Shown here: positions 27,986 through 40,600 of the stretch, in pieces
How positions within the stretch are numbered: position 1 is the first letter of the stretch
Layout: each line of letters starts with the position of its first letter
Assembly (NCBI GenBank): GCA_963762565.1
Contig: CAVXLD010000001.1
Location: forward strand, 832,001 to 896,000
Reading direction: 5' to 3'
From: an uncultured Verrucomicrobiae bacterium
GTDB taxonomy: Bacteria > Verrucomicrobiota > Verrucomicrobiia > Chthoniobacterales > JAFAMB01
Length of the DNA: 64,000 bases
Program-made: the position numbers and the translations under genes
The notes under the pieces: generated by a model
The model's database searches: none
What the model saw: the letters and a program-made list of their open reading frames with translations, nothing else
What the model was told of the DNA's origin: nothing

Positions 27986-28732
27986 ATGCGACTATTGCTT
28001 ACAGCCGAACTGCATTACCGCCTATCATGGTTCAAATGGCTGGAAGCGCAAGCCGTTCATTACGAGGCGATCGCGATCTGCGGTGACCTGCTGGACGTGT
28101 TTTACAAGGAGCCGCTAAAGCGTCAAGTACAACGGACAACGAGTTGGCTCCGCGGCCTGGCGGCAAAAACCAGCGTGATCCTTTGTTCAGGTAATCATGA
28201 CACAATCGATATCCCTGTGGAACGCTCTTCCGGTCCGATGCTCACCTGGTTAGCGGACTTAGAATCGGTCGTCACTGTTGATGGCGGCACCAGGGTGATT
28301 TCTGATCAAGTCGTGATTACGAGCCTAGGCTTTGTCGCAACCGCCGCCAAAAAACGCCCGACTTTGGCTAACGGCCATCGATTGCGAAGCGAAAAAGTAC
28401 TGCCTTGGATTGTCCTGCATCATCATCCGCCTTCGTTCCATCAAGGAATCGGGCCCGAGGAGTTAACTGCAGGCAGCCTGATCAAAGAGTTTGCACCAGA
28501 CTTCTGGGCATCAGGGCGGCTTTACGGTCAAGAACTCTTTGTTAAGAGGCGCGGTTGGGTTCAGCGGATAGGCAGCTCAATCGTGTTGAATACCCCACAA
28601 TCGTATGTAGGACAGCAATTGTTAGATGGCTCTTTCCCAAATCACATTGTTCTTGATTTAGCGGCACGACAACTAACTTGGTACTGTGCCTATCAAGAGA
28701 AAGTTGATCAAGAAGCGTTTGATCACGGTTAG
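27986..28732 (+). CDS. Metallophosphoesterase-fold protein with degenerate metal motifs
   Basis: AELH (for DxH), GDLLD, GNHD, HHPP; final GHxH replaced by GRLY. Confidence 0.7.
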   Translation: MRLLLTAELHYRLSWFKWLEAQAVHYEAIAICGDLLDVFYKEPLKRQVQRTTSWLRGLAAKTSVILCSGNHDTIDIPVERSSGPMLTWLADLESVVTVDGGTRVISDQVVITSLGFVATAAKKRPTLANGHRLRSEKVLPWIVLHHHPPSFHQGIGPEELTAGSLIKEFAPDFWASGRLYGQELFVKRRGWVQRIGSSIVLNTPQSYVGQQLLDGSFPNHIVLDLAARQLTWYCAYQEKVDQEAFDHG

Positions 28733-28808
28733 TTCCCAAGATCGCTCAAGCCGTGGAGCGCTGCCTCCATTGAGCTCGTCGAGATGCTCAGGACAGGCCT
28801 CTCAAAAG

Positions 28809-28889
28809 AAAAAGGAGCGCCTCGCTTGCCTTAGAAGCGGAGGCACCCGTCAACTAGTCTGGTTAGTTTCCCCAAACCACCAGACTAAA
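28809..28889 (-). ncRNA. Conserved two-hairpin RNA element, copy 1 (G-loop hairpin plus intrinsic terminator)
   Basis: UAGUCUGGUGGUUU-GGGG-AAACUAACCAGACUA, then GGGUGCCUCCGCUU-CUAAGGC-AAGCGAGGCGCUCCUUUUU; 3' of the porin pseudogene. Confidence 0.65.
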
Positions 28890-28930
28890 CTTGTACAGTC
28901 TTAGGTTCCGCTGATAGAGGCGGAAACTAA

Positions 28931-30803
28931 TTAGAAGTACCATTCAACCTGGGTGCCAAACAGCCACCCGTGATTTGTATTGCCGTTGTAAGGCGGCATG
29001 AATGGGGTACCAAATTCTCCATTCGGCGTGGTCAATCCTTTAAGCGAATCAGACCAAATGGCGTATGTCGCAAAGAAACGCAGTTCAGGTCTGGTGTAGT
29101 AACCACCATTCGGCTTGATCACAGGACCAAAGTCGAAGACTCGCAACCAACCATGTTGGGCGCCAAACCAGGAGTACCGTTAGCGTTACTATTATCTTGG
29201 TTACTCTCCCATATGCGCGCGAATTGCTCTTGGAACGCAATATTGTCTGTAATCCAGATGGCAGGGCGCATACCGAAGTCAACATCGTGGACGTGGAGGT
29301 AACGATTTTCGACACGGGAACCGTGTTGGGATTAATCACGTTCCCGCCGGCGTCGCTGCCGCCGGGTCCAGTCCCGGTTGTTCCGCCTACCGCTGAGCGA
29401 CCGTAAGTCTCCTCTCAGTTAGCCCATAACCCAATGGAAAACCATGGAAGCTCTGGAGCCGGAGCAGGTGCCGGCGCGGCCATCGTTTTGCCGTCCTTAG
29501 ACATCCCAGCGACTGGAGCAGGTTCGGAGTGATACCAGGGCAGAGCAAAATAAGCCTGGAAACCAGCCCTATACTCGAACGAATGATCAATAACATGACC
29601 TACGTTGATGGTTTGTACGGCCGGAGTTGTTGGGTTTCGGAAAAGATCAGGTTCTCAGCGTTTTGTACCGAAGAAGTGATCACCGGCACTGAAGTTTGTC
29701 GCACCTCTACCGAATAAGGCATAAGCAGTGAACGAGTTGTTACCGCCCCAGGTCCGAACTTAACGTTATAGATGGCGCCACCGCCGATACCCCAGGCGGA
29801 TGGTGTATGCACTGGGTTGGTTAGCGCCGTCACGTTGCCGTTACTATCGTAACCTTGCGTGAACGTGCCGCCCTTTTCCACGTTGCCGATCAAGACCAGC
29901 GCTAGGCTACCGGGGACCGGGCCAAGAGCGATATCCTTCAACCGGAGGTCAAAGGTGTGCTTGAAGAAGGTGCCGATACTCGGAGATATAAAGCCATTTC
30001 ATGGCAAAATCAGAAAGCCAGAAAGCAGTTTACTAACCCTATCACTCCATGACATAGACACCTCTCCATAACGGAATCATCAACCAGAAATAATCATCTG
30101 GATCAGTATTGAACCGGTCATAGAAGCGTTCACCACCCCAGAACGTAATCTCAGGTGCGCCTTTGAAGACATTCTTCATTTCCAGGAAGGCCTGGCGAAG
30201 AACGAAGTCAAAGTCGTTACCGCTGTTCTCAATCCCGCCGTGGCTGCCCGTGAAAGTGCTGCGGCTCTGGACGTAACGAATCGCCGGGGTGAACGTCATT
30301 GAAACATCCATGACGTCCGGGCTATCACCCAACATGTGGGCCTGCATCCAGGTCAACTCCATGTACGTATCGTTTTCGTTACCGAGACGCTCAAGACCGA
30401 AATGCGGGAAGTTAGGCACGTTGAAGTTGAAGTTGCCGCCGCCACGTTGCCGTTGAACTGGAACAAGGCACGAACGTAGGCAGAGAATGTGAAGTTCCGG
30501 GTCAAGGACTTGAGGAAGGACTCGTCTAGCGGCGCCTCCGAGACTCCTTGCATCGGCATCGGTTAGGATGTGGGTATTCAGGATCGAGCCGCTGTCAGCT
30601 TTGGATTCCAAAAACTTCATTTCGGCTTCCATCGCAGTAATACGATCTTCGTACTCCTTCTGCATCTTCTGCATTTGGGTCTTCAATGCAGAAACATCAT
30701 TGCTATTGTTACTGTTGTCCTGGGCCAAGCAAACCGACCCGGTCAATAGAAAGGCGATAGCCAGCTGCGCATAGAAGAATCCTGTGGGGGGACGTAACTT
30801 CAT
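28931..30803 (-). pseudogene. Frameshifted LamB/maltoporin-like carbohydrate porin, paralog of 33163-35040
   Basis: Several ORF fragments align with the intact paralog (MKLRPPTG..., RLGNENDTYMELTW, FGTQVEWYF) across multiple frames. Confidence 0.9.
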
Positions 30804-30895
30804 GCTGTTTTATGTTCCTTTGGGGTAAGAGTTAAGGCTCGAGCTCAAGCCGGCACCTACCAGCACGAGGTCGATGACGGCTCTCTTAGGAACAG
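30804..30895 (-). promoter_or_regulatory. Structured 5' leader sequestering the SD of the porin pseudogene
   Basis: UGUUCCU/AGGAACA and AAGAG/CUCUU stems enclosing an inner hairpin; homologous to 35041-35130. Confidence 0.6.
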
Positions 30896-30905
30896 CTGGA
30901 TACAA

Positions 30906-30964
30906 AGTCGAGACGAAGGTCCCCAGATAGGACGCCTGGATAAATTCACATGACGATTTGATAA
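30906..30964 (-). promoter_or_regulatory. Putative AraC-dependent promoter (21-bp-spaced half-sites plus -10)
   Basis: + strand GGATA(30938)-N16-TGATA; -10-like TCGACT at the same offset as in the paralog. Confidence 0.5.
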
Positions 30965-31088
30965 GCCGCGTCCCGATCCACCGTCCATCGAGCAGCTCAG
31001 TCTGGTCGGGGGCAGTAAGCAGTAAGCAGTAAGCAGTAAGCAATGAGTCAGTGATCAACCTGCTGGCGGCTTTCGAAGTGCTTACCGC

Positions 31089-31984
31089 TCACTGCTCACT
31101 TCTCTCTGCCGGGGTTTCCCCCAAGATTGAATGATAAAGATCGCCGGCGAAACTAGAGCGGTCCCTGCGGCGGATTTCTTTAAAGACGCGAGAAAAATGT
31201 TGGATGGTGGCAAACCCGCATTCGAGAGCGATATCGCCGATTGGTAGATCGGAACTCAACAGCAAAGCTTCCGCGTGACGAATTCGTACTTTGGTTAGCT
31301 GCTTATGCATAGAGCTCCCTGCTTCCTGGCTGAAAAGCGCGGCTAATCTCCCACGGGAGAGTCCAACCTCTTCTGCTAACGTGCGTAGGGTCCAGTCTTC
31401 TCTAAAACGGCCCTCAAGAATTCTCAGTGCTCTCGAAAGCGCCGGGTGCAGAGCGGCCGGGGAGGGTTCCGGTTTCGAGTTTTCCATCGCTCGCACGACT
31501 TCAAGGACGAGCGCATCCAGCGCCAAACGCAACCCAGCGGCCTGATGCACAGAGCTTGTTGTGTCTTCTCGAATGATCTGCAGGAAATGACGTTCCAAGT
31601 GAGGTGAGCCAACTAGCGACAACGTGCTTTTAAGAGATTCTAACGCCTTCCACTCCGGATGACGATTTTCCACCGCTCGTAAATCAAACCCTACCCAAAG
31701 CAGGTGATGTTTTGGTTCCGGTCCGTGCTCCACCCAGTGATTCAGATTCGGAGGAAAACACCAAAGCGAGCCGGCTTTAAAAAGATCTCTCGTTCGCCCA
31801 TGAGTCCCATTCGCGTGGTCCCCTTTACAACGTAGCCGATCTCCCAATGGCGATGCAGGTGGGGACCCACTCGATATCTCGGCGCTTCCCAATGTTCGCC
31901 GGAGTCGATCACCTCCGGCAGAATCCTATCGAGTCCGACCGCCCAAAACCCAGCCAGAGGTCCTCTAGTTTTCAAAATCTGCAT
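31089..31984 (-). pseudogene. Frameshifted AraC family regulator
   Basis: N-part MQILKTRGPL..EVIDSGEH in one frame, C-part (ECGFATIQHFSRVFKE) in another; shift near 31780; paralog of 35546-36442. Confidence 0.85.
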
Positions 31985-32063
31985 AAGCCGTCCTTGAGGG
32001 GAGAAATCGATTCCTGGAGCTCTTGTAGCTTGTAACACTTAGAAATGCGAAAGTGCAAGCTGC

Positions 32064-32834
32064 ATGGAGCGAATGGCGGCAGAATGCAGCAAATCAATGA
32101 GCCAGCTCGTTCAAATCGGCCAGACCGTGCGTCGTCCGGTTCATCAGAACACGCCCATCGTTCAAGCGTTATTAAAACATCTCGAGGCAATGGCTTTTGA
32201 TGGAGCACCCAGGGCCCTTGGCATCGATCAAGAGGGTCGCGAGATGGTGGATTACATCTCCGGCGAGGCCGGTCATTATCCACTTAAGCCGTATGTATTA
32301 TCGGAATCGACACTGATTTAGCTTGGCCGTCTGCTCCGGCGCTTTCATGACGCGACGGTCAGCTTTTCACCGCCAAAAAATCTCGTTTGGCATAACATCG
32401 TCGACGGGCCATGCGGGGTTATTTGTCACAGCGATGCCGGTCCCTACAATATCATCTTTCGCAACGGTAACCCAGTTGCACTGATCGACTTCGAACGAGC
32501 AGCGCCAGGCCCTCGGGTTTGGGACATCGCATTTGTAGTTTATCGATTTGCTCCTCTCTGTGATTTGCGAGAGCAAGGACTCACTCAGACCTTTCTCAGA
32601 CACATCGCTCGCCGAATCCGGATTTTGCTACACGCTTACGGTTGCTCCCGACAGGATGACCTATTCGATTGGATCCAGATACGGCTAAGGACTGAGATCG
32701 GCTTATTCGAAGCCCCGGAAAAGGATGTCATAGGTGGACGTCGGCAGAAAATCGAGGAGGGCCATCTCGATCTCTATAAGCGCGACCTCCGTCTGATTGA
32801 GCAGGTGTCCGGAGCATTGCGGAAGTTGATTTAG
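32064..32834 (+). pseudogene. Aminoglycoside-phosphotransferase-like kinase interrupted by an in-frame TAG at 32319
   Basis: GQTVRRP..LLKHLE..GAPRALG, then *LGRLLRRFHDA..CHSDAGPYN..LIDFE..GPRVWDIA continuing in the same frame to 32834. Confidence 0.8.
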
Positions 32835-33000
32835 GTAAACGCGAGAAGCTCCCTCATGGCACAGTATAGAACGTGAATCGCAATTAGATTTCGCTCCTAC
32901 GGTAGCTGGCCTCTTTTTTGCCTCTCGGGCTATAAAGATCCGGCTCCTACGGAGCCGTTTTTGAACAGCCTGCGACGTTGCGCGGCCCACCAATGACCTC

Positions 33001-33043
33001 TCACCAATCACCTCTCACCTCTCACTCACCTCTCACTTCTCAC
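33001..33043. repeat. Heptamer array TCACCWC
   Basis: tcaccaatcacctctcacctctcac... Confidence 0.7.
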
Positions 33044-33046
33044 AAC

Positions 33047-33128
33047 AAAAGGAGCGCCTCCGCTTGCCTTAGAAGCGGAGGCACCCTTCAACTAGTCCGG
33101 TTAGTTTCCCCAAACCACCAGACTAAAA
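33047..33128 (-). ncRNA. Conserved two-hairpin RNA element, copy 2
   Basis: UAGUCUGGUGGUUU-GGGG-AAACUAACCGGACUA plus GGGUGCCUCCGCUU-CUAAGGC-AAGCGGAGGCGCUCCUUUU, 3' of the intact porin. Confidence 0.7.
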
Positions 33129-33162
33129 TCGGTCGGCCTCGCAAGCGAGGCACGCTCCACGG

Positions 33163-35040
33163 TTAGAAGAACCACTCAACCTGGGTACCGAACAACCAGC
33201 CATGGTTGGTGTTGCCATTGTATGGCGCCGCGAAACCACCGCCGCCGCCGGAACCTTCTTCGATGGGAGTCGTCATCCCCTTGAGCGAGTCTGACCAAAT
33301 GGCGTAGGTAGCGAAGAACCGGATCTCGGGTTTGGTATAGTAACCACCCTTTGGTTTGATCACCGGTCCAACGTCAAAGACTCCCAACCACCCGGATTTT
33401 CCGAAGCCGGGATAGCCGGCGATGTTGTTATTGCTCTCGTATTGCCCACTGAACTGGCCTTGGAGAGCGATATTGTCTGCTACCCAAAAGGCGGGACGAG
33501 TACCGAACTGAACATCGTGGACGTGCCCGGAAACAACTTTGCTCACGATGGGCTCAGTGGGATTAACTACGTTTCCGCCTTGGCCAAGACCAGGTCCGGT
33601 AGTCCCTCCAAAAGCAAAACCACTATATGAGTCTTCCCAGTCGCCGAAGAAGGCAACGGAGAACCAGGGAAGCGCTGGAGCAGCCGCCGGCGCCGGCGCC
33701 GCTACGCCCTTACCGTCTTTGGACGTCCCAGCCACCGCGGGCGCGGGTTCAGAATGGTACCAGGGCAGGGCTACGTACAGCTGGAAGCCCGCTCGATAAG
33801 TGAATCCGTGGTTGAGGGCGTCACCAACATTAACTTCCCCCGTGTATCCCGGATGACGGAAGAGGAATAAGTTTTCCGCCCCCTGGACGCTGCCAAGATC
33901 GGAGCCGCTGCTGAAATTCGTCACGCCCCTACCAAAGAGTGCATAAGCGGTGAACGAATTATTGCCGCCGCCGGGACCGAACTTAACATTGTAAATGAGA
34001 CCGCCACCAATACCCCACGCAGAATCGGTGTGGAGTGGATTCGTCAAATCGACGATATTGCCAGCGGAGTCGTAGTCTTGGGTAAAGGTCCCACCCTTTT
34101 CGTAGTTGCCGATCAGGACTAAGGCAATGGTTCCGGGGATCGGTCCGAGTTGAATATTCTTCAACCGCGCGTCGAATGTCTGCTTGAACTCAGAGCCGAT
34201 ACCCGGGGATATGTCTTGCGCGTTCAGACCACCAAGCCAGGCGAAATTGAGTTGGCCGATTCCCAGGTCGATGTTTTCAACACCAGCGCCGTACCCGGAA
34301 GTGTCTAACCAGAAGTAATCTTCCGGATCCGTGTTGTAACGGTCATAGAAGCGAACACCACTCCAGAAAGTGATCTCAGGGGCGGCCTTGAAAACGTTCT
34401 TCGCCTCCAGGTAAGCCTGGCGAAGAATGAAATCGAAGTCGTTGCCGCTACGAGTCACGTTGTTTTGAGCGTCGAAGCTCGCTCGGTTTTGCACGTAGCG
34501 GATAGCCGGCGTGAAGGTCATCGATACATCCATCACATCCGGGCTATCACCCAGCATATGGGCCTGCATCCAGGTCAACTCCATGTAGGTATCGTTTTCG
34601 TTACCCAGACGCTCACGACCCTCTCCCGGAAAGTTCGGCAGCTCAAAACTGAAGTTGCCGCCTCCACCGTTTCCATTGAATTGGAAGCCCGCCCGGATGT
34701 ATGCCGAGAACGTAAAATTCCGGGTCAACGACTTTAAGAAAGATTCGTCAAGGGTTGGCGCCGCTGACACCTCTGTTCCGTTCGCATCGGTCAGGATGCG
34801 GGTATTCAAGATGGAGCCGGAGTCAGCTCTGGATTCCAAGCTTTTCATCTCCGCTTCCATCGAAGTGATGCGGTCTTGATATTGCTGTTGCTGCTTCTGC
34901 AAGCTCTCGATCTGGGCTTTCAGAGCAGAGACATCATTATTGTTACTACTGTTGTCCTGGGCTAGAGCGATCGACCCAGTAAATAAAAAGGCGGCAGCCA
35001 CCTTCGCACACAGGGGACCTGTGGGGGGACGTAACTTCAT
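33163..35040 (-). CDS. LamB/maltoporin-like carbohydrate porin with N-terminal coiled coil
   Basis: Signal peptide, coiled-coil extension, YIRAG, RLGNENDTYME, WSGVRFY.R, KPEIRFFATYA, C-terminal FGTQVEWFF. Confidence 0.9.
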   Translation of the reverse strand: MKLRPPTGPLCAKVAAAFLFTGSIALAQDNSSNNNDVSALKAQIESLQKQQQQYQDRITSMEAEMKSLESRADSGSILNTRILTDANGTEVSAAPTLDESFLKSLTRNFTFSAYIRAGFQFNGNGGGGNFSFELPNFPGEGRERLGNENDTYMELTWMQAHMLGDSPDVMDVSMTFTPAIRYVQNRASFDAQNNVTRSGNDFDFILRQAYLEAKNVFKAAPEITFWSGVRFYDRYNTDPEDYFWLDTSGYGAGVENIDLGIGQLNFAWLGGLNAQDISPGIGSEFKQTFDARLKNIQLGPIPGTIALVLIGNYEKGGTFTQDYDSAGNIVDLTNPLHTDSAWGIGGGLIYNVKFGPGGGNNSFTAYALFGRGVTNFSSGSDLGSVQGAENLFLFRHPGYTGEVNVGDALNHGFTYRAGFQLYVALPWYHSEPAPAVAGTSKDGKGVAAPAPAAAPALPWFSVAFFGDWEDSYSGFAFGGTTGPGLGQGGNVVNPTEPIVSKVVSGHVHDVQFGTRPAFWVADNIALQGQFSGQYESNNNIAGYPGFGKSGWLGVFDVGPVIKPKGGYYTKPEIRFFATYAIWSDSLKGMTTPIEEGSGGGGGFAAPYNGNTNHGWLFGTQVEWFF

Positions 35041-35130
35041 GTCTTGGTATTATTCCTTTGAGGTAAGAGTTAAGGCCGGTACCGGGTCATCAACATCAAC
35101 GCGGCACCGATGTAAGCTCTCTTAGGAATT
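35041..35130 (-). promoter_or_regulatory. Structured 5' leader sequestering the porin SD
   Basis: AUUCCU/AGGAAU, AAGAG/CUCUU and CGGUGCCG/CGGUACCG stems. Confidence 0.6.
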
Positions 35131-35141
35131 TGAGTTAACAA

Positions 35142-35199
35142 AGTCTAGCCGTAAAACTTCGAATCGGAAATACGGATAAATTTTTCCGATGGTTAGATA
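35142..35199 (-). promoter_or_regulatory. Porin promoter with tandem AraC-type half-sites
   Basis: -10 TAGACT (35147-35142); TATCT-N16-TATCC on the minus strand just upstream of the -35 position. Confidence 0.55.
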
Positions 35200-35295
35200 A
35201 CCGGATAACTGCGCCTACAGCCGGCGTTGCCATACGCAAACCATCTTGCATTCGGACTGAGAATCCTTTACAACAGCCGAACCAGCCGCAGTTAG

Positions 35296-35383
35296 TATCT
35301 AATTTTAAAATCGGCTTATCTGTTCGTCCGAATGTTGTGTCCAACCGTTCCGATTACTTATCTGTTAGTCCGATTTCTAGTCC
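35296..35383 (+). promoter_or_regulatory. Array of four 21-bp-periodic AraC-type half-sites
   Basis: TATCT 35296, TATCT 35317, TGTCC 35338, TATCT 35359; three units also carry TCCGA. Confidence 0.6.
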
Positions 35384-35545
35384 TTTTTAGACCGCGTGTT
35401 AGTTATTAATGTCAGTAAATTACCAAGATGAGTAATAGTTGGCGAACAGTATCGCAATTTACTGTCTACTTTACCTTGACTTTATTGGATCCGACGAAGA
35501 GATAAAGCCGGTTAGTCGTTCAGGTCAGCCAGGGCCAGCACGGAT

Positions 35546-37368: not shown

Positions 37369-38892
37369 CTACAGCGGCACGCTGAGCTGAACTCCTAACA
37401 CAACCTCGTTTGTAGCGTTATGGTAGCCGCCGGGATTGATAATCCACTGAAGATCCGGCTGAATGTTTGCCCCGTGGAAAACGTCGAACGAGTAGAAAAT
37501 TTCCTCTACCCATTCGTTATTTTGTACGTCGAAGCCAGAACCAGGATGAGTGTTGATGTATTCCCTCTCGGCGTTCCGTACACTGCCGGAAACGCGGTTC
37601 CAACCCGTTGCTATGCCAACGGAATCGTAGGGTCGCTTCGACCAAGGACCCCAGTAGTAGAGTCCAGTGAATATTTGGCCCTGTTGAAACGAGGTCCGAG
37701 GATCTAGCCAAATAGTCCCTGCAAAGGCACTCAAACCAGTCTTTGGTCGACTCGGATCCGGAGCAGTAAGCTGTTGGAAAACACTAGCATAAACACCCCA
37801 GTCTCCTGTGAACGTGCTGCCCAGGAGGGCCGCCGAACCCGGTGCACCGGCGAGCACGCTTTTGGCGGCTCCGGTGGTTTCTGTATGGTTTGTATTCCCG
37901 AAGGCTCCCAGCACCCAAAATCCCGGTAGCTTTTGCCCGCAAATATCCACTTTCGGTTTCCAATCGATTTCGAACGGGATAATGGCTCCGCTGGTCCCGC
38001 CCGGATTATCGACTCGAAGGTAGTATTGGCTGGAAATCCAATAGTTGTTGAAAGCAAAGAGGCCAACTCTGAAGGATAAGTCCTTGGTGGCGTTCCACTG
38101 GAAATCCGTTCCCCATTGGCTCACCGGCCAAGTGAACATGCTATAACCCGCCACGTTACCGGTGATCCCTGCTGTGAACGTCAGGTTTTCAAATGGGAAA
38201 GCGTAATAGCCTCCGAATTCCTGACTCATGTTCATCAAACCGACTTTAAATTCGAACGTGTCACTAAGCAGGGTCTGTTTGAACCACATGCTGGTGATGC
38301 GCCAGGTTTGGCCTCGTCCCCACACTTCCTGAATCAGTTGGATGGTATTGGGATTCTGGATATTGCCCAGATTGTTTCCAGTACGCTTGGTGACATAGAA
38401 CTCGAAACTGCCGCCTTCCCAACAGAGCAATTTTTCTAAATTTAAATCGATTCCGAAAAGGGCCTGATCCGTATAAGCCCATGCCTGACCACTGTTTTTC
38501 GCATTACCGGCGAAAGTGTCCTTACCTCCGCTGACGTTGCTGGCCGTCTCACTGAAATAATCGATGTTAAAATCGACACCCCAGTTGTGGAGAAGGGTAC
38601 GCAATCCCCACCAGTCGCCGGTCACGTATCTATCCCAATACTCCCTACCTTCTTCCGGCGTCAGATGCATCGAGGGATCAAAGGCGATAGGATTGGCAGG
38701 CGCGGTGCCGGAAGAAATCGCGTTTGCAGCCGACATTGGGGGCGGTGGAGGAGAGGGAGGGTTGGTGACAGAGGGAGGGTTGGTTTGACTTGAATCGTCA
38801 GCCGCAAAAGCGGGTAGGGAACAGATACAGAGCAACCCGATGGCAATAGGAACCGCTCTGTCAGTCAGCGGTGAAACTGAATTCCTTTTCAC
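37369..38892 (-). CDS. OprB family carbohydrate porin
   Basis: TGDWWGLRT.L...GV, QEVWGRGQTWR, WPVSQWG, QPDLQWIINPGG. Confidence 0.9.
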   Translation of the reverse strand: MKRNSVSPLTDRAVPIAIGLLCICSLPAFAADDSSQTNPPSVTNPPSPPPPPMSAANAISSGTAPANPIAFDPSMHLTPEEGREYWDRYVTGDWWGLRTLLHNWGVDFNIDYFSETASNVSGGKDTFAGNAKNSGQAWAYTDQALFGIDLNLEKLLCWEGGSFEFYVTKRTGNNLGNIQNPNTIQLIQEVWGRGQTWRITSMWFKQTLLSDTFEFKVGLMNMSQEFGGYYAFPFENLTFTAGITGNVAGYSMFTWPVSQWGTDFQWNATKDLSFRVGLFAFNNYWISSQYYLRVDNPGGTSGAIIPFEIDWKPKVDICGQKLPGFWVLGAFGNTNHTETTGAAKSVLAGAPGSAALLGSTFTGDWGVYASVFQQLTAPDPSRPKTGLSAFAGTIWLDPRTSFQQGQIFTGLYYWGPWSKRPYDSVGIATGWNRVSGSVRNAEREYINTHPGSGFDVQNNEWVEEIFYSFDVFHGANIQPDLQWIINPGGYHNATNEVVLGVQLSVPL

Positions 38893-39354
38893 GAGGTAGA
38901 TCTCCTTGGTTAGGGTCAGCCCAGGGTCCTGCTCGACCTGAGCCAGGTCTCCCGATCGCTGGGCCGAGAAAGTTTCGGACTCACTTTGGTTAATTTCAAC
39001 TACTTAAATACGAACTACTTAAAATCGCTCTGTGCCTGCCCATACATTCCCCGCTGACTCCAAGGCGTAGTTCTGCTGCCCCCCCGGATGGGTGCCGCCT
39101 GTACTAAGGAACAGTCCGCTTCCCCGGCCACACCGATAGAGGTCTTGCTCCATTACCGAGCAATTTTCCTCTCGAAGAGACGTCCTAATTCGCCGGTCTG
39201 TGCTCGCATATCAGACTTCGCCAGATTTTACCAATCAGCTTTCCCCCCTTCGACGCGCCTGGCTTGAGCTTGTCGAAAGCAAACGCGGGGCTGCATTGAG
39301 CTCGTCGAGATGCCTGCATCGAGCTCGTCGAGATGCTCAGGGTAGGCTTCCCAC

Positions 39355-39434
39355 AAAAAGAGCGCCTCCACTTGCCTTCAAAGCGGAGGCGCCCGTCAAT
39401 AGCCCGGTTAGTTTCCCCAAACCACCAGACTAAA
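39355..39434 (-). ncRNA. Conserved two-hairpin RNA element, copy 3 (stand-alone; candidate sRNA 3' part)
   Basis: UAGUCUGGUGGUUU-GGGG-AAACUAACCGGGCUA plus GGGCGCCUCCGCUU-UGAAGGC-AAGUGGAGGCGCUCUUUUU; no porin CDS directly upstream. Confidence 0.7.
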
Positions 39435-39532
39435 TTGTCCATCCTGGCACTGCATTCTGTGGTCAGCTAAAACCCAAATAAAGTTCGAATTTAACCGAAC
39501 AGTACCTGACCGTTCTCAACTCATTTCTGGGC

Positions 39533-39592
39533 ATTGTCGAGTGCTGCAGGGTGGTTTCAGACGGATAGACACTTTTTCCCGATGATTAGATA
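39533..39592 (-). promoter_or_regulatory. Putative AraC-type promoter homologous to the porin promoter
   Basis: AGACACTTTTTCCCGATGATTAGATA vs GGATAAATTTTTCCGATGGTTAGATA at 35174; gtcga at the same -10 offset. Confidence 0.55.
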
Positions 39593-39679: not shown

Positions 39680-40600
39680 TTAGCCGGCAGGCGTTGTCCT
39701 GGCGGCGGCTGTGTCGGATGGGGTCAAAATCTGCCCATTAATGCGCAACGACCAATCCCGACGGTATTCTGCGGCCGTCGATCCGGATTGTTGACGAAAA
39801 ATCCGAGCGAAATGCTGGCTGGTTGCAAAACCGCAATCCTCAGCAATCTCGCCGATACTCAGGCTCGACTCCTTCAACAACGTCTGAGCATGCTCCACCC
39901 GGACCTTATTGAGGACCTTGTGAATCGAGCTGCCGACCTGTCGACAAAACAATTGGGCTAAACGGGACCGAGACATTCCCGACTCGCTGGCCAGCCGCTC
40001 GAGGGACCAATTCTCCCGGAACCGTGTCTGCAGAAGGTTCAAAGCGCGCGAAACCGCCGGATGCACGACAACATTTGCCGCTCTTCTATCCCCGTCAGTG
40101 CCAGCTCTGACAATCTCTAGAAGCAAAGCGTCCACGCCCAGGCGGAGCGCTGCCGCTTGATAGTGAGATGGGGTAGCGGCTTCAGTGACGATCCGGGCAA
40201 ACAGCTGTTCAAACTGATAGACCTCGTGAAGAACCACAACTTCTCGCAAAAGGCCTCTCAAGTTCCACTCGGAATGCCGAGCGATGATGGCGGGAAAATG
40301 CAAACCAAGGCAGAGACGACGATGGCGCGCTTCGGTTCCTTGGCGAAGCCAATGCTCGGTCCCGGTAGTCACGCTCCAAAACGACCCGGCGCTCAGCTGG
40401 AACCCGCGCCCTCCGGTGACATAAAGCTCGCTGGTTCCTTCGGCGACGTAACCTACTTCCCAGTAACGATGTTGATGTCCCTCCTCTTGCCATCCAGGCG
40501 ACTCTCGGTGCTCGCCGAAATCTACTACCTCAGAAACTATCTGATTTAGCGCAACGGCATGAAAGCCGTTGATTACTCCTTTGGGCGTAACAGTTTGCAT
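39680..40600 (-). CDS. AraC family transcriptional regulator (paralog of 35546)
   Basis: EVVDFGEHRE, HPAVSRALNLLQTRFRENW, DCGFATSQHFARIF. Confidence 0.93.
   Translation of the reverse strand: MQTVTPKGVINGFHAVALNQIVSEVVDFGEHRESPGWQEEGHQHRYWEVGYVAEGTSELYVTGGRGFQLSAGSFWSVTTGTEHWLRQGTEARHRRLCLGLHFPAIIARHSEWNLRGLLREVVVLHEVYQFEQLFARIVTEAATPSHYQAAALRLGVDALLLEIVRAGTDGDRRAANVVVHPAVSRALNLLQTRFRENWSLERLASESGMSRSRLAQLFCRQVGSSIHKVLNKVRVEHAQTLLKESSLSIGEIAEDCGFATSQHFARIFRQQSGSTAAEYRRDWSLRINGQILTPSDTAAARTTPAG

Follow-up and report, generated by a model that had tools for sequence, protein, structure and literature searches.

The stretch analyzed here, 64,000 nucleotides of a Chthoniobacterales (Verrucomicrobiota) genome (contig CAVXLD010000001.1, positions 832,001 to 896,000) and below called the window, contains a carbohydrate-uptake locus. 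Genes for LamB-family porins are accompanied at this locus by two RNA elements, a structured 5′ leader and an element of ~80 nt in the 3′ untranslated region (UTR), the latter being a candidate small regulatory RNA (sRNA) as well as the main subject of this analysis. LamB copy A (33163..35040, minus strand) is an intact open reading frame (ORF) of 625 aa with a match to Pfam family PF02264 LamB (E 1.2e-53), and proteins 100% identical to it are named carbohydrate porin, from a Chthoniobacterales metagenome-assembled genome (MAG). LamB copy B (28931..30803, minus strand) is a pseudogene split into several ORFs; tblastn with protein A recovers it as six pieces in frames 2, 3, 3, 2, 1 and 3, with residues 246-276 of protein A unmatched. 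It carries at least five frame changes and a replaced segment, yet its leader and its 3′ element are nearly intact. An earlier note on this DNA spoke of two LamB paralogs, a description that fits the intact copy A and needs amending for copy B.

The 3′ element and the 5′ leader

Element A (33044..33131, minus strand) opens with hairpin 1 (33126-33092), an imperfect hairpin with three G-U pairs, one bulge and a GGGG tetraloop (33111-33108). A short linker, UUGAAGGG (33091-33084), leads to an intrinsic terminator, the stem of which (33086-33052) closes a 7-nt loop, CUAAGGC, and is followed by a U-run. Element B (28807..28893, minus strand) has an intact hairpin 1, an A to C change in the linker and a terminator stem that is one base short. 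The fold of element A is predicted at -60.3 kcal/mol (z -5.54) and that of element B at -50.1 kcal/mol (z -4.2), values matched by 0/200 shuffles in each case. Covariance model (CM) matches reached 109.9 bits for element A, 99.3 bits for B and 96.2 bits for a third copy, element C (39352..39438, minus strand), which was also recovered by an exact 14-mer match. A terminator scan found 14 pairs in A and in C, and the terminators of these two copies are the two strongest terminator-like sites in 12 kb. Elements A and B begin ~35-40 nt after the LamB stop codons and end in the terminator hairpin and U-run, as do the copies at three loci from other genomes (L001, L003 and L007). Both window copies have the layout of a 3′-UTR sRNA, namely a position at the mRNA 3′ end and a shared intrinsic terminator; precedents for such RNAs acting on their own or on other mRNAs are described (PMC7398697; PMC8081044). 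Judged from its strong conservation and its near-perfect antisense match to a different porin gene in related genomes (both described below), the 3′ element is probably a small regulatory RNA. Rfam 15 gave no match at gathering score across the whole window, and with E values up to 5 the region 28600-35400 returned only two chance miRNA-family matches (31010-31111), far below gathering scores.

Element C is an orphan that no porin coding sequence precedes; its neighbours are an AraC-type gene (39680-40600) on one side and an OprB porin gene (37369-38892) on the other. It retains hairpin 1 and the terminator, with the terminator loop reading UGAAGGC, and its homology with copy B continues ~50 nt beyond the terminator. 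About 100 nt upstream of it, a stretch at 39561..39592 (minus strand) bears a weak likeness to the LamB-A upstream region (TATCTAAYCATCGG(G)AAAAA...TATCCG; blastn 81% over 32 nt, E 0.04), and its spacing to a CTCGAC box was judged by eye. This stretch may be the remnant of a promoter or operator, and the element C locus may be a porin gene reduced to a promoter and an sRNA module. A 23-nt unit, CTGCATCGAGCTCGTCGAGATGC, occurs twice just 3′ of element C (39291-39336) and once 3′ of element B.

One genome scan with a LamB alignment provided 22 loci (L001-L022) for comparison. The resulting set of elements consists of six complete copies (window A, B and C; L001, L003 and L007) and two halves, one at the end of L002 and one at the start of L009. 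These two ends overlap by linker sequence and belong to one MAG, apparently on adjacent contigs; the tandem order of A-type gene, 3′ element, ~2.5 kb and B-type gene is kept in at least two other MAGs (L002/L009; L003 6780-6875). Between window copy A and the copies at L001, L003 and L007, 74-76 of 82 nt are identical (90-93%), compared with 49-56% at the fourfold-degenerate sites of the same genes and 44-49% in the spacer from stop codon to hairpin 1. The top of hairpin 1 is invariant in seven copies, and what has changed in the stems of the element amounts to U-G/U-A swaps, with a single C-G compensation in copy C. In a more distant group of paralogs (L015 4271-4350, L020 4172-4252 and L016 3686-3770) the 3′ UTR opens, right from the stop codon, with a relative of hairpin 1 (UAGUCCGGAAAUUGGGUUAAUUUCCUGAC). 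The G-rich loop of this distant group, GGGUUAA, complements UUAACCC in the leaders of the group itself over 7 nt, and its extended form GGGUUAAUU complements AAUUAACCC in the L012 leader of the same MAG over 9 nt. These matches of the L015 group were unremarkable in the matrix of pairing energies described below.

The structured leaders of copy A (35041..35130, minus strand; -24.0 kcal/mol, z -2.29) and copy B (30804..30892, minus strand; -30.2 kcal/mol, z -2.53; aligned with leader A) end in GCCUUAACUCUUACCUCAAAGGAA (35076-35053, minus strand) and GCCUUAACUCUUACCCCAAAGGAA (30838-30815, minus strand), respectively. The same leader is present in eight copies, these two and those at L001, L002, L003 (twice), L007 and L009. 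Within leader A, GCCUUA (35076-35071) and CCUCAAA (35063-35057) are predicted to be unpaired; leader B has GCCUUA at 30838-30833 and CCCCAAA at 30825-30819. In the predicted folds an outer helix formed by UUCCU/AGGAA and AAGAG/CUCUU buries a box resembling a Shine-Dalgarno (SD) sequence, GGAA (35056-35053 in leader A), and encloses a variable inner hairpin. The distance from the end of GGAA to the AUG is 10-12 nt in the seven leaders that include the AUG, and the box is only SD-like. The leader may sequester the SD: the GG of GGAA is paired with a probability of at least 0.85 in 8/8 predicted folds. The outer helix itself is paired in 93.8% of 80 cells across the eight leaders, compared with 36-62% for slid controls, and no pair among the eight has changed on both sides; such a helix is consistent with the data and unproven by covariation. 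RNAalifold, run on a MAFFT alignment of the leaders, recovered the outer helix; it missed the inner hairpin, the stem of which is shifted in register from A-type to B-type leaders and therefore does not align. Changes in the inner hairpin (CGGU/ACCG, UCGA/UCGA and UUGAU/AUCGA) were read by eye and left uncounted. As far as sequence comparison can tell, the leader and the 3′ element are two separate conserved RNA elements that flank the porin gene, both of them under selection.

Among leaders of the other loci (L004-L022), from LamB homologs down to 44% identity, the motif CCUU(C)AAC(C) recurs, with a C-run after it and then an SD-like AAGGAG/GGAA. The SD-like box that accompanies this recurring motif is unusually distant from the AUG (10-18 nt). 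A similar sequence, CCCUAACCAAGGAG, precedes the OprB gene of the window (38893-38925, minus strand). A search of the window with CCCTTCAAC at up to one mismatch gave 20 matches compared with 16.7 expected, which is no signal.

Complementarity with a sister porin

The first pointer to a partner of the 3′ element came from the CM search, which returned weak reverse-strand matches at the start codons of L004, L005 and L006. These loci carry a LamB paralog, 72% identical, that we call paralog-2, and element and target are found in the same MAG in three cases (L003 with L004, L001 with L006 and L007 with L005). On the coding strand of all three target loci, an exact 15-mer, CCGGTTAGTTTCCCC, is the reverse complement of the loop and 3′ arm of hairpin 1; at L007 an A in the 3′ arm of hairpin 1 is replaced by a G, which remains able to pair with U in L005. 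A set of 173 natural 5′ regions (-110..+60) was drawn from the window and from the loci, except L006, the ORF of which runs off the locus. In this set the longest perfect complement to the element measures 16 nt in L004 and L005 and at most 9 nt in the remaining 171.

The site in paralog-2 covers +10..+29 (codons 4-10) and is predicted to form a hairpin with a CCCC tetraloop, a mirror image of hairpin 1. Element and target are predicted to form a main helix of 16 Watson-Crick pairs, or 20 bp with G-U, for which the accessible energy with opening costs included is -13.6 to -14.5 kcal/mol (15-20 bp). A second predicted helix of 10 bp joins the linker, GUUGAAGGGU, to GCCCUUCAAC in a large open loop of the paralog-2 leader; its energy is -4.2 to -6.1 kcal/mol in three of the four pairings with an intact linker, and it is not among the top sites of L006 x L001. 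The two sites bracket the SD and the AUG, in antiparallel order. When 20 3′ UTRs were scored against 23 5′ regions, all 15 pairs of an A/B-type element with paralog-2 stood at -13.6 kcal/mol, and the best of the other 445 at -9.6 kcal/mol. The match is more than the likeness of two similar palindromes, because the apical tetraloops of the two mirror-image hairpins (4 nt each in the predicted folds) are complementary, GGGG and CCCC, and not identical.

These matches suggest the following course of events. Transcription of the porin gene, or of orphan copy C, would yield the 3′ module, and GGGG would meet CCCC; pairing could be seeded either by the loops or by the linker. A fully matched helix between the two RNAs (16 Watson-Crick pairs, or 20 bp counting G-U) would then displace the weaker intramolecular stems, which is plausible for hairpin 1 because it contains three G-U pairs and a bulge. 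The linker GUUGAAGGGU would clamp GCCCUUCAAC in the open loop of the paralog-2 leader, both duplexes would enclose the SD and the AUG between them, and less of the competing porin would be translated. What we infer in this scheme is that the RNA builds up in the cell, that the pairing takes place in vivo and that the effect goes downward.

Several points weigh against this scheme. The gene for the target is absent from the 64-kb window, where a search for the 15-mer target at up to three mismatches found only the three elements and three sites with 3 mismatches. At ~94% mutual identity, the three target loci do not count as three independent confirmations, and no double-sided covariation or compensatory change was found between element and target. 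Opening hairpin 1 costs 14-15 kcal/mol, a 4-nt loop is small for a kissing contact, and the linkers are altered in copies B and C. Diverged target sites at L012, L014 and L017, which stem from more distant genomes, have no matching partner (at least 11 nt, right strand) in the same-MAG loci of a few kb each; the L012-type site, CCGGCUAGUUUUCCCCGACU, would call for a partner ...GGGGAAAACUAGCCGG. Finally, an inverted duplication could have left the complementarity behind as a relic, and the conservation of the element could then have another cause. The conservation, the predicted folds and the complementarity themselves are shown by the sequence analysis, and on balance we assign a probability of about one half to the 3′ element being a 3′-UTR-borne antisense sRNA that cross-regulates a paralogous porin.

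Alternative explanations

The leader motifs, GCCUUAAC and the C-run, may serve a factor unrelated to the 3′ element, such as another G-rich sRNA, an RNA-binding protein or in-cis anti-SD pairing of CCUU with AAGG. We regard this as possible, if on the unlikely side. Homologs of LamB as distant as 44-55% identity, in which the 3′ UTR is free of the element, have the motifs in their leaders too; the minimum-energy fold of the L007 leader does pair CCUU with AAGG of the SD region; and CCTTAAC occurs 9 times in the window compared with 5.3 expected, a count reached by 4/100 shuffles. However, this explanation concerns the leader only and is compatible with an antisense role of the 3′ element.

The main rival to the antisense explanation is that the 3′ element may be a mere 3′-end module, that is, a terminator combined with a stabilizing or protein-binding hairpin. 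Its antisense likeness to paralog-2 would in that case have no regulatory role and be an evolutionary leftover, such as an inverted duplication of the 5′ end of a porin gene might produce. A hairpin plus terminator with a G-rich loop is also present in distant 3′ UTRs (L015 with 28.4 bits and L020 with 28.0 bits, model R1), and because these hairpins differ in sequence, the architecture is older than the complementarity. The lack of covariation between element and target and the absence of the target from the window fit this explanation as well. A stabilizer needs structure only, yet nearly all bases of hairpin 1, its loop and its bulge are fixed while neutral sites are ~50% identical. Moreover, in a relic one would expect the complementarity to run unbroken across the SD and AUG; the complementary blocks instead flank them and lie in accessible parts of both RNAs. 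We judge this explanation unlikely.

Least probable is the explanation that the earlier note offered, in which two contacts between the element and the leader of its own mRNA (UAAGGC with GCCUUA and UUUGGGG with CCYCAAA), made as a long-range fold in cis or by an autoregulatory 3′-UTR sRNA in trans, open or lock the SD helix. The strings it was built on are real: UUUGGGG (33114-33108 in A, 28876-28870 in B) is followed by UAAGGC (33071-33066 in A, 28833-28828 in B) in both window copies, the two sites are collinear with the leader in the antiparallel order described, and both leader segments are mostly unpaired in the predicted folds, as had been said. AAGGC is invariant in all seven terminator-bearing copies and GCCUU in 8/8 leaders, and the C/U changes in the leaders preserve G-C or G-U pairing with the G-run. 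A ranking of 59 upstream regions of the window by two-site accessible energy also favours it, with leader B first (-10.9 kcal/mol) and leader A fifth (-9.6 kcal/mol); unrelated regions in the same ranking stand at -10.0, -9.8 and -9.7 kcal/mol, so that the margins are below 1 kcal/mol. Autoregulation has a precedent among 3′-UTR sRNAs in the systems described in PMC7398697. The description of two loops was half right, with UAAGGC located in the 7-nt terminator loop and UUUGGGG composed of three stem bases and the GGGG tetraloop. Its UUU belongs to the apical stem GGUUU/AAACU; to free the full 7 nt takes 4.8 kcal/mol.

The complementarity itself is at chance level. Dinucleotide shuffles of the 3′ element were scored as successes when they gave a collinear pairing of at least 6 Watson-Crick bp plus at least 7 bp with at most one G-U. 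Against the hand-picked 24-nt piece of the leader, 170/2000 (A) and 120/2000 (B) shuffles succeeded (6-8.5%), and against the whole leader 915/2000 (A) and 976/2000 (B), or ~47%. A perfect complement of 6-7 nt to the element is present in 135/173 natural 5′ regions. Short complementarities between SD-like and anti-SD-like sequences are poor evidence by themselves; AAGG with CCUU is one example, and a run of G with a run of C another. Accessible pairing energies with the own leaders are weak (-2.6 to -5.5 kcal/mol); with opening costs included, site 1 gives -3.8 to -4.9 kcal/mol and site 2 from +0.2 to -3.8 kcal/mol, and GGGG has a partner at least as good in a C-run at codons 5-6 of the same transcript. 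Seen as targets of their own 3′ UTRs, leader A stands 19th and leader B 10th among the 23 porin 5′ regions of the 20 x 23 matrix. In the other paralog groups no own leader comes first (ranks 2 to 23 of 23), and the 5′ and 3′ ends of one gene show no enrichment for matching each other.

RNAcofold, which the earlier note had named as a check, left both RNAs in their own folds, with a ddG of -0.3 to -3.5 kcal/mol from trivial end contacts only; as the program is unable to draw loop-loop kissing contacts, an accessibility-corrected helix scan was added. The energies of full-length RNAduplex runs of leader and element (-43 to -58 kcal/mol) were discarded as meaningless, since internal structure is ignored. 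The linker GUUGAAGGG was also considered as a seed for the own leader and rejected: by eye, its pairing with GCCUUAAC amounts to no more than 3 + 4 bp on the two sides of a bulge, and it is absent from the top own-leader sites.

Loop and leader were found to vary independently, the observation that the earlier note had itself named as refuting. GCCUUA is invariant in 8/8 leaders, and of all copies only A and B of the window have a U as the loop base that faces its A; at L001, L003, L007 and the start of L009 this base is a G, and copy C reads UGAAGGC. Conversely, UUUGGGG is invariant in 7/7 copies and its leader partner takes five forms (CCUCAAA, CCCCAAA, CCCAAA, CCUCAA and CCUUAAA), all of which still permit 5-7 pairs, with the C/U change opposite G tolerated. 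CCUU(C)AAC and the C-run are kept as well in paralogs with element-free 3′ UTRs. The 6-7-nt matches with the own leader are most simply explained as chance, or as an echo of the paralogy between the two leaders, and any action of the element on its own leader would be marginal at most.

Genomic setting and relation to known systems

The neighbours of the LamB genes include, by Pfam, three AraC-type regulator genes (one of them split), the OprB porin gene, a DUF1203 gene and a GH127 glycosidase gene. The split AraC-type gene is the one immediately upstream of copy B, where two ORFs overlap (31089-31892 and 31742-32038, minus strand). Upstream of LamB A lies a palindrome, ATCGGAAA-N12-TTTCCGAT (35163-35190, minus strand), which is kept in L001, L002, L003 and L007 and is a candidate operator for the neighbouring AraC-type or another regulator. 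No sigma-70 consensus promoter was found in front of any porin gene or near the 3′ elements. Tandem repeats of heptamers follow directly 3′ of terminators, with plus-strand units ACCTCTC (x7.3), GCAGTAA (x4.4) and TGCTCAC (x4.4) and window sites at 32996-33043, 31012-31042 and 31079-31109. Heptamers in the same post-terminator position at L001, L003, L007, L004 and L005 read GTGAGAG/GTGAAAA or ATAGCAA.

An sRNA of the MicF type forms an extended, nearly contiguous duplex with the translation-initiation region of a porin mRNA. MicF and MicC are described as modulating OmpF and OmpC in enterobacteria (PMC5745476). As in MicF/ompF and MicC/ompC, an sRNA tied to one porin gene would here pair with the start region of another porin mRNA. 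Unlike MicF, the RNA lies in a porin 3′ UTR and not in a divergent gene, the predicted target is a LamB paralog of the same family, and the phylum is Verrucomicrobiota. With no Rfam match, there is no sign of homology with MicF, and the likeness is functional only. MalH, from the malG 3′ UTR of E. coli, is described as lowering other outer-membrane porins and shifting the porin mix (PMC8081044). It resembles the predicted arrangement in that an RNA from the 3′ end of a sugar-uptake mRNA acts on other porins; unlike MalH, which derives from an ABC-transporter operon and uses short seed pairing, the element has a porin as its host gene and a predicted 20-bp hairpin-to-hairpin antisense match. 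OppZ and CarZ of Vibrio cholerae are described as autoregulatory 3′-UTR sRNAs that pair with their own transcript (PMC7398697). They share with the element the 3′-UTR location and the shared terminator, and they represent a known form of the idea of own-transcript pairing in trans, but the own-transcript match found here is at chance level.

The long-range fold in cis that the earlier note envisaged has in common with hok and aapA the idea of a 3′ segment that pairs with the 5′ end and controls access to the SD. Those short toxin mRNAs do so through extended, covarying helices, whereas here the mRNA is ~2 kb long, the matches are 6-7 nt, there is no covariation, and the helices are not formed in RNAcofold, which is blind to loop-loop contacts. 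CopA and CopT are encoded in cis on opposite strands of one locus and have loops of 6-7 nt. The element and paralog-2 are like them in having mirror-image hairpins with complementary loops (GGGG and CCCC), from which pairing could spread into the stems, and unlike them in that the hairpins are encoded at different loci and the loops measure 4 nt.

We conclude from the sequence comparisons that the 3′ element and paralog-2 are a credible, testable candidate for an sRNA-target pair, and that the own-leader interaction, as originally written, is not supported. A broader extension is more speculative, and we hold it to be doubtful when all its parts are taken together. In it, LamB 3′ UTRs of the Chthoniobacterales would aim antisense hairpins at the start hairpins and C-rich leader loops of sister porins, forming an RNA-level porin-exclusion network in which transcribing one porin would automatically silence its competitor. 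Where a porin decays (copy B) or is deleted (copy C), the module would survive as a free-standing sRNA gene, that is, an sRNA born from a dying porin gene, and a mild self-limitation could come on top through the weak own-leader matches.

The Planctomycetes-Verrucomicrobia-Chlamydiae group has few annotated regulatory sRNAs; a table in a 2022 survey lists 8 distinct sRNAs for it compared with 345 for Proteobacteria (PMC9029176). Our literature searches found no paper on Chthoniobacter sRNAs or RNA motifs or on porin regulation in Verrucomicrobia. If the cross-regulation proposed here is true, it would provide a clean, easily testable sRNA-target pair in abundant soil bacteria, with a hairpin-to-hairpin geometry nearer to that of plasmid antisense RNAs, and it would represent an independent invention of the logic of MicF and MalH, by which one porin is traded for another.

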